Of a stretch of DNA of 64,000 nt, positions 42,727 through 47,301 are shown piece after piece. Below the pieces are notes generated by a model, which was not told where the DNA came from, searched no databases, and saw only the letters and a program-made list of their open reading frames with translations. The translations under genes were made by a program, and so were the position numbers. The stretch's first letter is position 1, and every line of letters begins with the position of its first letter. Source of the stretch: an uncultured Acidimicrobiia bacterium (GTDB taxonomy: Bacteria > Actinomycetota > Acidimicrobiia > Acidimicrobiales > AC-14); the NCBI GenBank assembly GCA_963836205.1, contig CAWIIV010000014.1:96001-160000 (forward strand). Direction: 5' to 3'.

Positions 42727-42915
42727 ACCTGTTGTCAACGGGATTTCTCCCGAGAACTTGATAGCGAGCACAAGCAAAAATATCCCCAAGCCCTCGGCCG
42801 ATTAGTACCGGTCGGCTGAAGACCTTGCGATCCTTACACCTCCGGCCTATCAACGTGGTCATCTGGCCACGGGCCTTACCAGGTTAACCCTGTGGGAGAT
42901 TTCATCTTGGAACGA

Positions 42916-42947
<32 letters not shown>

Positions 42948-43064
42948 CACCCGCAGGTCGCTAACCAGCCGTGCCCTTGGCAGGACAACTGGCACACGAG
43001 AGCTGCGTCCGTCCCGGTCCTCTCGTACTAGGGACAGCCTTCCTCAAATCTCCTACGGCTGCGA

Positions 43065-43096
<32 letters not shown>

Positions 43097-43112
43097 AAAC
43101 CCAGCTCGCGTA

Positions 43113-43146
<34 letters not shown>

Positions 43147-43156
43147 GATGCTTCAC

Positions 43157-43195
<39 letters not shown>

Positions 43196-43731
43196 TCCCG
43201 TCGATATGGACTCTTGGGGAAGATGAGCCTGTTATCCCCGGGGTACCTTTTATCCGTTGAGCGACGGCGCTTCCACACGCTACCGCCGGATCACTATGCC
43301 CTGCTTTCGCACCTGCTTGACGTGTTTGTCTCGCAGTCAAGCTCCCTTGTGCCATTGCACTCGACGGCTGATTGCCAACCAGCCTGAGGGAACCTTTGGG
43401 CACCTCCGTTACATTTTAGGAGGTGACCGCCCCAGTCAAACTACCCAGCTGCCGCTGTCCCCGATCCGGATAACGGACCTGGGTTAGAGCCCCAGTACGA
43501 ACAGGGTGGTATTTCAACGTTGGCTCCACCACGGCTGGCGCCGCAGCTTCCTAGCCTCCCACCTATCCTACACAATCCGTACCAAAGCTCAACATCAGCC
43601 TATAGTAAAGGTCCACGGGGTCTTTCCGTCCTGTCGCAGCTACCGAGCATCTTTACTCGGAGTTCAATTTCGCCGGGTCAGTGGTTGAGACAGTAGCCAA
43701 GTCGTTACGCCATTCGTGCAGGTCGGAACTT

Positions 43732-44109
<378 letters not shown>

Positions 44110-44844
44110 CCCTATATCCCCATATCGCTATGAGGGGTGGACCATATCTTCATCCGTCAGCTTCGATGACGGAGCTCTGCGTATGGCCTCTGAGGATTCC
44201 CAACACCTCAACACACCGATGATCTGCTCATCGGTGCGGCGTCGCTTGCCACCGCGGTTCATCGGGCTCCTCAATGCGAGGATTTCGATGATGCCTGCGG
44301 GTAGCAGGTGACGATCTGACTGGACGAGGCTCGTGATCTGACGGAAGACCGCCAGGTCGTTGGCCTTGGGGCCGCGCAACGGAAAGCGCTCGAAGAACGG
44401 GAAGACCCGCACCGCGAGCTCCGTCGGCCTTGTGACTTCAAAGTAGAAGACACCATCGCCGCGGCCTCGCACCGTTCCCACTCCGAAGGTCTGCCGCAGA
44501 AACGATGGCGCTTCTGGACCGACCTGCGAAACGTTGAACGACAGCGAGACCCGCCATGGCAGGCCACGGTCACCACTCCGACGGATGGGAACGTTGAAGC
44601 TTCCTTCTCCATCGACGAATCCCGCGATGTAGTGACCTACATCGGATGGAATCCGGTCCAACCAGTTCGAGGACCTGGGCCTTTCCTGCTGATTGTCCGC
44701 ACCGATCGGATTGTCACTGCTCACCCCACACACTCTACAAAGAGGGTGCGACATGAACGAGTACCGTCGGATACACGGGGTTTCCAGCATATAGCAGAGT
44801 TTTTGTCTGGCGGATTACTCCACCAGGGCCGCAACTTGGACCTT
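44110..44844 (-). mobile_element. Group I intron (IB-like, 735 nt) after 23S U1911, carrying a homing endonuclease gene
   Basis: Removal restores GGCGGCCGT|AACTATAACGG; ends in G; P1 GGCCGU/GCGGCC with U-G pair; P10 AGUU/AACU; P/Q AUGCUGGAAA/AAUCAGCAGG; P3 CUCUGC/GCAGAG; P7 GGCCAU/AUGGUC; P8 UCCGUCA/UGACGGA. Confidence 0.95.
44128..44724 (-). CDS. Single-motif LAGLIDADG homing endonuclease (start GTG 44724 or ATG 44754)
   Basis: YIAGFVDGEGSF motif, SFNVSQ, FGVGTV, VFPFFERFPLRGPKAND; ORF intact. Confidence 0.93.
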   Translation of the reverse strand: MSSDNPIGADNQQERPRSSNWLDRIPSDVGHYIAGFVDGEGSFNVPIRRSGDRGLPWRVSLSFNVSQVGPEAPSFLRQTFGVGTVRGRGDGVFYFEVTRPTELAVRVFPFFERFPLRGPKANDLAVFRQITSLVQSDRHLLPAGIIEILALRSPMNRGGKRRRTDEQIIGVLRCWESSEAIRRAPSSKLTDEDMVHPS

Positions 44845-45715
44845 ACGGCCGCCGTTTACTGGGGCTTAGGTTCAGAGCTTCGCCCTTGCGGACTAACCCT
44901 TCCCCGTAACCTTCCAGCACCGGGCAGGCGTCACAGCGTATACATCGTCTTACGACTTCGCACGCTGCTGTGTTTTTAGTAAACAGTCGCTTGGCCCTGC
45001 TCTCTGCGACCTCCTCGAGCTCGGCACGCGAAGTGCTTCACCCTAATGAGGCCCTCCTTCTCCCGAAGTTACGGAGGTATTTTGCCGAGTTCCTTAACCA
45101 CTGTTCTCCCGATCGCCTTGGTATTCTCTACCTGCCCACCTGCGTCGGTTTGGGGTACGGGCACCATGTCAGCTCGCTAGAGGCTTTTCTCGGCAGCATG
45201 GGATCAGTCACTTCGCCTGAAACGGCTCGGCATCGCGTCTCAGAGTATATGAAGCCCGGATTTGCCTAGGCTTCCTCCTACACGCTTACCCCGGGACAAC
45301 CAACGCCCGGGTTGACCTACCCTCCTGCGTCTCCCCATTGCTGTCCGCCACGGAAAGGGTCGGTTCGTCTCCCGAAGGAAACAAGCCCCTTAGCATTTCC
45401 GTCTTGGAATGGGCGCGGACACGGTGGTACTGGAATATCAACCAGTTGTGCATCGACTACGCCTCTCGGCCTCGCCTTAGCTCCCGACTCACCCTGGGCG
45501 GATTAGCCTTCCCCAGGAACCCTTGGGCATTCGGCGGACGAGTTTCTCACTCGTCTTTCGCTACTCATGCCGGCATTCGCTCTCGAACGCGCTCCACGAC
45601 GGTTTCCACCCCCGCTTCACGGCACGCTCGACGCTCCCCTACCACTTCTGCGCAAGCGCAGAAATCCGCAGCTTCGGCTCTAGGCTTGAGCCCCGTTACA
45701 TTGTCCGCGCGGGAC

Positions 45716-45746
<31 letters not shown>

Positions 45747-45747
45747 T

Positions 45748-45790
<43 letters not shown>

Positions 45791-46799
45791 TCCCACATCG
45801 TTTCCCACTTAGCCTAGAATTTGGGGCCTTAGCTGGCGGTCTGGGCTGTTTCCCTCTCGACCATGAAGCTCATCCCCCATGGTCTCACTGCCGGGCTGTG
45901 AGCATTGGCATTCGGAGTTTGATTGGGGTCGGTAAGCTTGTAGGCCCCCTAACCCATTCAGTGCTCTACCTCCAATGCTGATCACCCGACGCTGCACCTA
46001 AATGCATTTCGGGGAGAACCAGCTATCACCGAGTTTGCTTGGCCTTTCACCCCTATCCACAAGTCATCCCCCATGTTTTCAACCATGGTGGGTTCGGTCC
46101 TCCACGGGGTCTTACCCCCGCTTCAACCTGCCCATGGATAGATCACTCGGCTTCGGGTCTACCGCAAGCGACTGAACGCCCTATTCAGACTCGCTTTCGC
46201 TCCGGCTCCCCCTCACGGGTTAACCTTGCCACTTACGGTAACTCGCCGGCTCATTCTTCAAAAGGCACGCCATCACGGCCTTGTGGGCGAACCCACAAGA
46301 CGACGCTCTGACTGTTTGTAAGCCAACGGTTTCAGGTACTATTTCACTCCCCTCCCGGGGTGCTTTTCACCTTTCCCTCACGGTACTAGTTCGCTATCGG
46401 TCGCCTGAAAGTACTTAGCCTTACGAGGTGGTCCTCGCAGATTCACGCCGACCTTCCCGGGTCCGGCGCTACTTGGGATGACGATCTGAGTCTGAATACC
46501 TTTCGCATACGGGGCTCTTACCCACTACGGCGCGACGTTCCAGAACGCTTCTGCTAGGCATCAGATTTGTAACTCAGTTCGTGGGTCTGGTGCCCCACGC
46601 TATCGGTCCCGCAACCCCGAACTGGCAACGCCACCAGGCTATTGCACCAATCCGGTTTAGGCTCTTCCCGTTTCGCTCGCCGCTACTCAGGGAGTCGCAT
46701 TTGCTTTCCTTTCCACAGGGTACTGAGATGTTTCAGTTCCCCCGGTTCCCTCTACCCGCCCTATATATTCAGGCGGGAGTAACGCCCCATGACGGGCGC

Positions 46800-46831
<32 letters not shown>

Positions 46832-47301
46832 AGCTTGGTCGGCAGCTCCCCGTAGCTTTTCGCAGCCACCCACGTCCTTCATCGGCTTCAGGCGCCAAGG
46901 CATCCACCGTTGGCTCTTTGTAGCTTGGAGAATCAAAGATGCTCGTGCTCGCTATGAAGTTCTCAAGAGGCCGACGAATCGGCACCGAAGGCGCCTTCGA
47001 CTCGTCGGAACAGACAAGCGGTCAGCGCCGAAGGCGCTGGCATTGCCTTTGCTGGCTGGAGACGCCAACGGCCGCCCCTCGAAAGGAGCGGCGCGGGGAC
47101 GACCCCGAAGGGGGCGAGTGCCCCCAGAAAACGGAACAGAGACATGCGAGAAACAAACGTCGAGGCCGACCCGGAATGGGTCGTCTACCTCGGCGGTCCT
47201 TCCAGCGAGACCTTGCGGTCGGGCCGGTCGACCAGTGATCAACTGGGAGTCCTCGAGTGACGAAACCTCAGTGAAGAGGCCTCGTGTCGAGCAGTAAGAC
47301 T

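Follow-up and report, generated by a model that had tools for sequence, protein, structure and literature searches.

The question raised by this locus is what kind of element interrupts the 23S rRNA gene of an uncultured soil bacterium of the Acidimicrobiia within helix 69 (H69), and whether that element is still mobile. The gene lies in a stretch of 64,000 nucleotides (nt), which was analysed as a whole and is called the window here (assembly GCA_963836205.1, contig CAWIIV010000014.1, positions 96,001–160,000 of the forward strand); all coordinates refer to it. BLAST comparison with the intron-less 23S gene of a congener (G002) revealed two extra blocks of 735 and 338 nt. An earlier note on this DNA, made from the letters alone, had read the larger block as a group I intron with an intact homing endonuclease. 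The analysis confirmed that this insertion is a genuine group I intron, and it is very probably a mobile one, which carries a homing-endonuclease gene; the insertion follows U1911, where the 5′ strand of the H69 stem ends.

The host rRNA (rrn) operon was organized as 5S-23S-16S on the minus strand, according to an Rfam scan. The split 23S gene was the sole one detected in the genome (a single match in a metagenome-assembled genome, MAG, that is 88.6% complete), and removal of both introns reduced it to 3076 nt. The intron borders were set by a base-by-base walk along the exons. Excision of the larger intron restored the exon sequence ...GGCGGCCGU|AACUAUAACGG. A duplicated AA, at the start of the intron and at the start of the 3′ exon, left three formally possible cut points. 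The insertion was assigned after U, because this was the sole cut point that gave both an exon-terminal U and an intron-terminal G. The U corresponded to position 1911 in E. coli K-12 rrlH (2904 nt), and the neighbouring Us in this numbering were 1915, 1917, 1923, 1926, 1931, and 1951. The H69 stem is formed by 1906–1911 paired with 1919–1924, and U1911 closes its 5′ strand (PMC2602781). The site named in the earlier note thus agreed with both the exon walk and the K-12 numbering, and the intron is called L1911 below. The rrl copy of E. coli strain G1/2 (L105, NZ_CP060083.1 4959574-4962433) was annotated with 2860 instead of 2904 nt, and its H69 U counted as 1897; therefore, that copy carries deletions relative to K-12.

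The fold of the L1911 intron was drawn by hand and with RNAalifold (Table 1). Covariation was assessed in this intron together with 27 further introns at the same site (n = 28), in an alignment that included 10 nt of either flanking exon. Standard pairs were found in 95.0% of the cells (80 pairs in 13 helices), compared with 88.0% in column shuffles, none of which was as high (0 of 500). When the 3′ partners were slid by 1–3 columns as a control, 37–47% of the cells were paired. Both sides had changed in 35 of the 80 pairs, against a mean of 18.5 in the shuffles, none of which (0 of 500) reached this value. P3, P5a, P8, and P9 had three to five compensatory pairs each. P4, P5, and P7 were nearly invariant and thus uninformative for covariation either way. 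The P5c element was only 61.6% paired, and the alignment was poor there. The P6 helix was retained even in a 316-nt L1911 intron (L066) that has no open reading frame (ORF).

The most telling evidence for the fold is that the P1 guide co-varied with the host exon. The middle P1 pair changed from C-G to G-C in four of the 28 introns, in step with the exon: hosts with the H69 stem GGCGGU (L037, L042, and L066) had the guide GCCGCC, and the stem GGCCGU was accompanied by GCGGCC(U). P1 was paired in 99.4% and P10 in 97.3% of the cells. All 28 introns were preceded by an exon-terminal U and ended with G. The group I features described before (P1, P10, and the terminal G) were therefore borne out by these 28 introns.

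The intron contains an intact LAGLIDADG homing-endonuclease gene, as had been proposed; this was supported by the open frame and by a Pfam match. The frame was open from 44128 to 44790 (220 codons), upstream to an ATG at 44790. This ATG as the start (220 aa) was rejected in favor of the GTG at 44724, as the homologues were mostly called at 198 aa and shared M or V at that position (residue 23 of the longer frame), with ATG in most of them. The protein had one LAGLIDADG_1 domain (PF00961; E = 6e-13, 50 bits vs. a cut-off of 23.1), which covered profile positions 1–101 of 102. Besides the motif, about 27 other positions were invariant in the 34 aligned homologues, L1917 enzymes included. The motif helix closes with an acidic residue, and the G-E-G was invariant throughout; presumably, this residue is the equivalent of the metal-binding D20 of I-CreI.

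The gene started in the 3′ strand of P5b, passed through P5a′, P5′, P4′, and P6, filled L6, and then continued through P6′, P7, P3′, P8, and P7′ to its stop in P9. Only L6, the ~470 nt between the two P6 strands, is an ORF part free of ribozyme constraint. The ratio of nonsynonymous to synonymous substitutions (dN/dS) was estimated for this gene against 19 intact homologues, with the ORF split by ribozyme overlap. The L6-only part (157 codons) had a median dN/dS of 0.19, with a proportion of synonymous differences (pS) of 0.55. The overlapping parts had medians of 1.09 at the N-terminus (16 codons, pS 0.11) and 0.75 at the C-terminus (25 codons, pS 0.19). This indicated that the protein is under purifying selection in the L6-only part and that the RNA governs the overlapped parts; some 20 residues at the N-terminus and 25 at the C-terminus are set by the ribozyme and not by the protein. 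The conserved P6′-P7-P3′ RNA (window 44128–44203; alignment columns 220–245) was read in two frames by different L1911 lineages, which resulted in two C-terminal tails unrelated to each other (WESSEAIRRAP... or GNPQRPYAELP...). Such a tail seems to be a side effect of the ribozyme sequence and not a functional element of the enzyme.

Table 1. Features of the split 23S rRNA gene and of the L1911 intron in the window.
Feature	Position	Strand	Remarks
23S rRNA gene	42782..46930	-	Rfam RF02541, 2723 bits; 4149 nt vs. 2925-position model
L1911 group I intron	44110..44844	-	735 nt; first base 44844, terminal G (omega-G) 44110
P1 exon strand GGCCGU (H69 5′ stem, 1906–1911)	44845..44850	-	U1911 = 44845; U-G pair at 5′ splice site
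Internal guide sequence GCGGCC (P1 intron strand)	44827..44832	-	
P10 intron strand AGUU	44833..44836	-	Partner is 3′ exon AACU, 44106-44109 (1912–1915)
P2 hairpin, 7 bp	44807..44826	-	7/7 pairs changed on both sides; 96.9% paired
P3 5′ strand	44794..44799	-	Partner 44175-44180; CUCUGC with GCAGAG; 98.8% paired, 3/6 pairs compensatory
P4-P5-P6 domain	44675..44789	-	RNAalifold/hand fold and 28-intron alignment
P4 (classical P and Q elements)	44784-44789 with 44687-44692	-	Invariant
Extended P5/P5a/P5b/P5c arm	44697-44778	-	P5 invariant; P5a 98%, P5a3/P5b 97% paired, with compensatory changes
P6 5′ strand	44675-44679	-	
P6 3′ strand	44199..44203	-	5/5 pairs compensatory, 93.8% paired
3′ half of catalytic core	44140..44188	-	Rfam alignment of J8/7-P7-P9 and hand fold
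P7	44183-44188 with 44140-44145	-	GGCCAU with AUGGUC; 99.4% paired
P3 3′ strand	44175-44180	-	
P8 hairpin	44154-44172	-	99.4% paired
J8/7	within 44140..44188	-	AUGAAGAU
P9 hairpin, GCGA loop	44118..44135	-	100% paired, 4/7 pairs compensatory
Homing-endonuclease gene	44128..44724	-	198 aa and stop; GTG start 44722-44724
LAGLIDADG motif IAGFVDGEGSF	44596..44628	-	A-G-F-x-x-G-E-G-S-F invariant in 34 aligned homologues
Exon between the introns (1912–1951)	44070..44109	-	40 nt
L1951 group I intron	43732..44069	-	338 nt, no ORF; Rfam Intron_gpI 38.6 bits, E = 1.7e-8

The distribution of the intron was patchy. In a panel of 41 relatives' genomes, 19 (the own genome included) had this part of the 23S gene assembled; their intron states were read from the sequence, in six genomes by contiguous BLAST pieces only. 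The combination of L1911 and L1951 introns was found in the own genome and in G004. L1931 alone was present in five genomes (G001, G005, G006, G011, and G012); L1923 alone was present in G013, G027, and G033; L1923 and L1951 occurred together in G016, and L1923, L1931, and L1951 in G003. Seven genomes (G002, G030, G031, G035, G037, G038, and G039) had no intron between 1911 and 1955. G000 to G006 belonged to one genus and differed in their intron states, which indicated turnover within one genus; synteny of the rrn locus was seen for G004, G002, and G006.

A scan of the representatives of 185,579 species yielded 121 loci encoding relatives of the endonuclease, of which the best 80 were kept and typed by their exon junctions. 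The L1911 intron was present at 27 of these best 80 loci. The records were labelled Acidimicrobiia, Acidimicrobiaceae, or Acidimicrobiales in 14 cases and Actinomycetes or Actinomycetota in 10; two were labelled Acidobacteriota (L035 on a 395-kb contig, the other on a 1.6-kb contig with uncertain binning), and one Rubrobacter sp. (on a 2.5-kb contig). Further introns (L1923, L1931, or L1951) were found in the same gene at most of the 27 loci. In metagenome proteins, 2040 matches were obtained at E < 1e-5; the best 120 clusters were 71–96% identical, and one of the clusters was named as from an 'Actinobacteria bacterium' MAG. The P1 hairpin was also sought as a sequence pattern in 401 genomes of this class; the count was discarded as unspecific in GC-rich DNA, where reversed-pattern controls were equally frequent.

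These data bear on the earlier note in two ways. It had called the site uncommon and the host phylum unexpected, and this view has to be given up, given the 27 loci and the Acidimicrobiia, Acidimicrobiaceae, or Acidimicrobiales labels of most of them. By its own account, the novelty would fall if L1911 introns proved common in Acidimicrobiia, and so they are in the sequence data, with at least 120 close metagenome protein clusters in addition. Its suggestion that the intron is likely still mobile gained support from the purifying selection on the ORF, from presence and absence at one syntenic rrn locus within the genus, and from the same intron in the 395-kb contig labelled Acidobacteriota. 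The note had not mentioned the L1951 intron 40 nt downstream, the overlap of the ORF with both ends of the ribozyme core, or the membership of this intron in one family with the L1923 and L1931 introns of close relatives.

Some observations in these loci stand apart. The 338-nt block is a second group I intron, at L1951, and its core showed no similarity to that of the L1911 intron and was of an unrelated type. G003 and G016 had the same L1951 intron with a LAGLIDADG ORF, which was degenerate in G016. In L048 (1437-2700; a MAG labelled Actinomycetes), the 5′ part of an L1911 intron and its endonuclease gene ran straight into an L1923-type 3′ part, and the exon 1912–1923 was missing. Possible readings are a hybrid intron, the loss of the H69 loop by deletion, or a misassembly. 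In L095 (1448-2370; alignment columns 320–507), an insert of ~190 nt breaks the L1911 endonuclease gene. It duplicates the 3′ end of the intron itself, a few bases of the exon, and a 5′ core of L1923-like type, and looks like a copied piece of the neighbouring junction. Window positions 44200 and 44678 were joined, with sides of only 22 nt, in contigs of two RNA libraries and one DNA run from soil, and one of these joins carried 27 other letters in between. This suggests that ORF-less versions of the intron family may occur in the environment. Further LAGLIDADG genes were observed in L026, L029, L033, L100, and many Pseudomonadota, Omnitrophota, and other loci. They sat ~330–630 nt (mostly 330–450) past the last exon base covered by the reference (~position 2300) and formed a separate clade of 25 rows; presumably, they belong to introns near the peptidyl-transferase region.

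The mechanism proposed for the L1911 intron is the one common to group I introns that encode a homing endonuclease. Transcription would yield a pre-23S rRNA that contains the intron, whose guide would pair with the 5′ strand of H69 to form P1, with a wobble pair between U1911 and G. A free guanosine bound in P7 would cut after U1911; P10 would then align the 3′ exon, and U1911 would attack after the terminal G (44110). The exons would be rejoined into an ordinary H69, with ...GGCCGU-AACUAUAAC as the ligated product. With both introns in the sole 23S gene found, the cell should depend on efficient splicing. The LAGLIDADG enzyme (198 aa, single motif) is probably dimeric; it would cleave intron-less 23S rDNA close to the sequence that encodes H69, and the intron would then spread (homing) when the break is repaired from a copy that carries it.

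Several points weigh against the mobile intron reading. Splicing, endonuclease activity, target, dimer state, and present-day mobility are inferred; what the data show directly is the exact site, the fold backed by covariation, an intact ORF under purifying selection, the patchy occurrence at one syntenic locus, and an enzyme clade of its own next to the L1917 enzymes. Joints in contigs of three soil metatranscriptomes (X15, X17, and X20) and one soil DNA run (X2) were considered as evidence of splicing and rejected as unspecific. Joints that skip 735–736 nt at the intron borders were found in X17 and X20, in one contig each per joint and with sides of 24–25 nt; the joined sequence is that of a conserved intron-less H69 and was also present as loose ends in X2. 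Therefore, these joints may stem from intron-less relatives and are not assignable to the host. Of the checks that the earlier note had proposed, the E. coli 23S numbering stood (U1911 in K-12); the Rfam model Intron_gpI (RF00028) gave only a weak hit of 19.3 bits (E = 0.021), under its gathering score of 50. The match covered J8/7-P7-P9 only, because the ORF splits the model; the gathering score is a detection threshold and not a structural criterion. The surroundings of the site showed no clear dyad symmetry; the best center (1905/1906) had 6 of 11 symmetric positions and the center 1913/1914 had 5 of 11; therefore, the cleavage site is not predictable from symmetry. A homodimer prediction gave no verdict and was counted neither for nor against a dimer. 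The ORF was full length in 19 of the 27 other L1911 introns and broken, shortened, or missing in eight, which points to ongoing decay: it was frameshifted or truncated in L039, L041, L044, and L046 (possibly long-read errors), shortened by internal deletions in L063 and L082, and interrupted in L095, whereas L066 has none. Finally, the genome is a MAG, and the missing 11% might hold a second, intron-less rrn operon.

Three other explanations were weighed against these data. rRNA operons are prone to chimeric assembly, and an error of assembly or binning in this MAG (25 contigs, 4.05 Mb) could have put another organism's intron into the operon. We regard this as hardly credible. The operon lies within a contig of more than 160 kb, and the protein-coding DNA to either side of it is 79–89% identical to that around the rrn operon in the congeners G004, G002, and G006. 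The exons are 97.7–99.5% identical to those of the intron-less G002. G004, a second species-level genome, has the same two introns on a 585-kb contig, with 96.5% identity across all 4149 nt, and the intron occurs at the same site in 26 further genomes. The 5′ exon-intron junction was also spanned by contigs from the soil DNA run X2 (194 nt, two differences) and the soil RNA library X17 (105 nt), with 2–3 differences in each. The insertion is not an assembly artefact. It is also very improbable that the insert is an intervening sequence, cut out without exon ligation to leave a fragmented 23S rRNA. Removal by RNase III that gives fragmented 23S rRNA is described for bacteria (PMC11270868), and the sub-threshold Rfam score would fit it. 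Against it, all 28 introns have kept P1 with its U-G pair, P10, and the G at their end, and P1 co-varied with the exon, which is only sensible for group I splicing and ligation; moreover, the site is a universally conserved functional loop-stem and not a variable helix tip.

The remaining explanation concerns mobility only: the ribozyme splices, the endonuclease is inactive or merely a maturase, and the intron is inherited vertically in this lineage. A single rrn operon leaves no intron-less target inside the cell, the intron is shared between the own genome and G004, the relative nearest to it, the ORF is damaged or missing in the eight introns listed above, and purifying selection would also fit a maturase role. 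On the other side, dN/dS was low in the free ORF part and the catalytic motif was invariant. Intron states varied within the genus, three members of which share the syntenic locus. The endonuclease tree departed from the host labels, as rows labelled Acidobacteriota and Rubrobacter lay inside the actinobacterial clade. On balance, we consider vertical inheritance without mobility unlikely, and a mobile group I intron with its homing-endonuclease gene remains the preferred reading.

The kind of element is familiar, and the L1911 site seems undescribed though common in related uncultured bacteria. L1911 was not found as a group I intron site in the published literature searched; the CRW and GISSD intron tables lay outside that search. 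In the text of a 2007 compilation, the bacterial endonuclease-bearing introns are at L1917, L1931, L1951, and L2593 (PMC1995217). The 2024 survey of rRNA insertions in the candidate phyla radiation (CPR) gives 1917, 1931, 1952, 2593, 2604, and 2657, and '1911' is absent from its main text (PMC11270868); an archaeal survey has no L1911 either (PMC6125680). An rRNA intron at 'position 1911' of the green-algal mitochondrial rnl gene was set aside, being a group II intron in a different numbering (PMC13190283).

To go further, L1911 could be an unrecorded rDNA homing site with its own specificity, derived from the L1917 lineage by a six-base shift and a re-written guide on an L1923/L1931 ribozyme chassis, within an overlooked radiation of soil Actinomycetota that have one to three mobile introns in 1911–1951. 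The chances for and against this proposal appear to us about equal. If it is true, these introns would form a natural series for the joint retargeting of a homing endonuclease and a ribozyme inside a 40-bp segment of a universally conserved gene. The set of L1911, L1917, L1923, and L1931 elements permits a direct study of such coupled retargeting. Bacterial rRNA group I introns are usually described as rare outside the CPR; ordinary soil Actinomycetota, which do not belong to it, commonly carry such introns, often several per gene. Within a family that serves as a scaffold in genome engineering, the L1911 enzyme clade is a candidate for a new cleavage specificity. The practical effects are modest, in that rRNA surveys and annotation pipelines may mis-size or miss such genes, and no new kind of mechanism was revealed.

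The relationship to introns at other sites was examined separately for enzyme and ribozyme. The identity to the own endonuclease was 63–93% for L1911 enzymes, 41–46% for L1917, 35–41% for L1923, 34–40% for L1931, and 28–33% for L1951. A quick maximum-likelihood tree of 95 enzymes sorted them by insertion site. The 23 L1911 rows grouped into a single clade with SH-aLRT support of 99, and this clade joined the L1917 rows with support of 98; the L1911 enzymes were outside the L1917 clade, as sister or next to it in this quick tree, and the rows labelled Acidobacteriota and Rubrobacter were nested among the actinobacterial ones. The own 5′ core (P3-P6) was 91.6% identical to the L1931 intron of G006, 87–88% to the L1923 introns of G003 and G013, and 70–92% to relatives' L1923 and L1931 introns overall. 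The 3′ core was 82–96% identical within L1911 and 70–82% identical to L1923 and L1931 introns. Judged by core sequence, the L1911, L1923, and L1931 introns of close relatives are one ribozyme family. Domain swapping between introns was considered, as FastTree arranged the 5′ core by host lineage and the 3′ core by site. This idea was dropped, since an approximately unbiased (AU) test on the 5′ core (121-column alignment, 59 rows) did not reject a single L1911 clade (p = 0.52); therefore, recombination or concerted evolution was not shown.

Among known systems, the L1917 introns (Synechococcus sp. C9; site 23IS6 in CPR) are the closest comparison. They also lie in the H69 region, six bases away, and also have a single-motif LAGLIDADG gene, and their enzymes are the nearest outgroup of the L1911 clade. 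In the cyanobacterial L1917 intron, too, an ORF is described that begins in a peripheral loop and enters the core (PMC1995217). There, the ORF starts in P6 and goes on through the ribozyme core, whereas the L1911 ORF starts in P5b, fills L6, and covers the 3′ core into P9. The L1911 intron differs further in that it is inserted after U1911 and not U1917, and its guide pairs with the 5′ strand of the H69 stem. It has a P2 hairpin, whereas the L1917 and L1931 introns of Synechococcus are described without P2 (PMC1995217). Its 3′ core is hardly alignable with those of the sampled L1917 introns.

The L1923 and L1931 introns occupy the same 23S domain, often beside L1911 in one gene. Site, P1 guide, 3′ core, and endonuclease clade set them apart; the enzymes are 34–41% identical, and the 3′ core tree sorts by site. 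Introns at L1931 are known in Thermotoga and Synechococcus (PMC1995217). L1923 and L1931 introns have been typed as IB4 in archaea (Nawrocki et al., 2018, PMC6125680), and cyanobacterial L1917 and L1931 introns have been called IC1-like (Haugen et al., PMC1995217). The core identity to L1923 and L1931 introns given above offers only indirect support for a possible placement of the L1911 intron in IB4.

With regard to the enzyme, the own protein matched each half of the two-domain structures of the I-SmaMI/I-OnuI family, with E-values down to 1e-29. Single-domain structures were matched more weakly, including 5gkk (3e-15), I-MsoI, an I-CreI-derived single chain, and I-Vdi141I. The LAGLIDADG motif with its acidic residue is shared with enzymes of the I-OnuI, I-SmaMI, and I-CreI types. 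The own protein is a single domain of 198 aa, unlike I-OnuI and I-SmaMI, which are fused two-domain monomers. As predicted for the L1911 enzyme, I-Vdi141I (L1927) and I-PpoI (L1925) home into the rDNA for H69 and the B2a bridge, where the target is fixed by ribosome function (PMC2602781). Their sites span 1915–1938, their introns are archaeal or eukaryotic nuclear ones, and I-PpoI is a His-Cys box enzyme. The predicted L1911 target must lie further 5′ than either of their sites.

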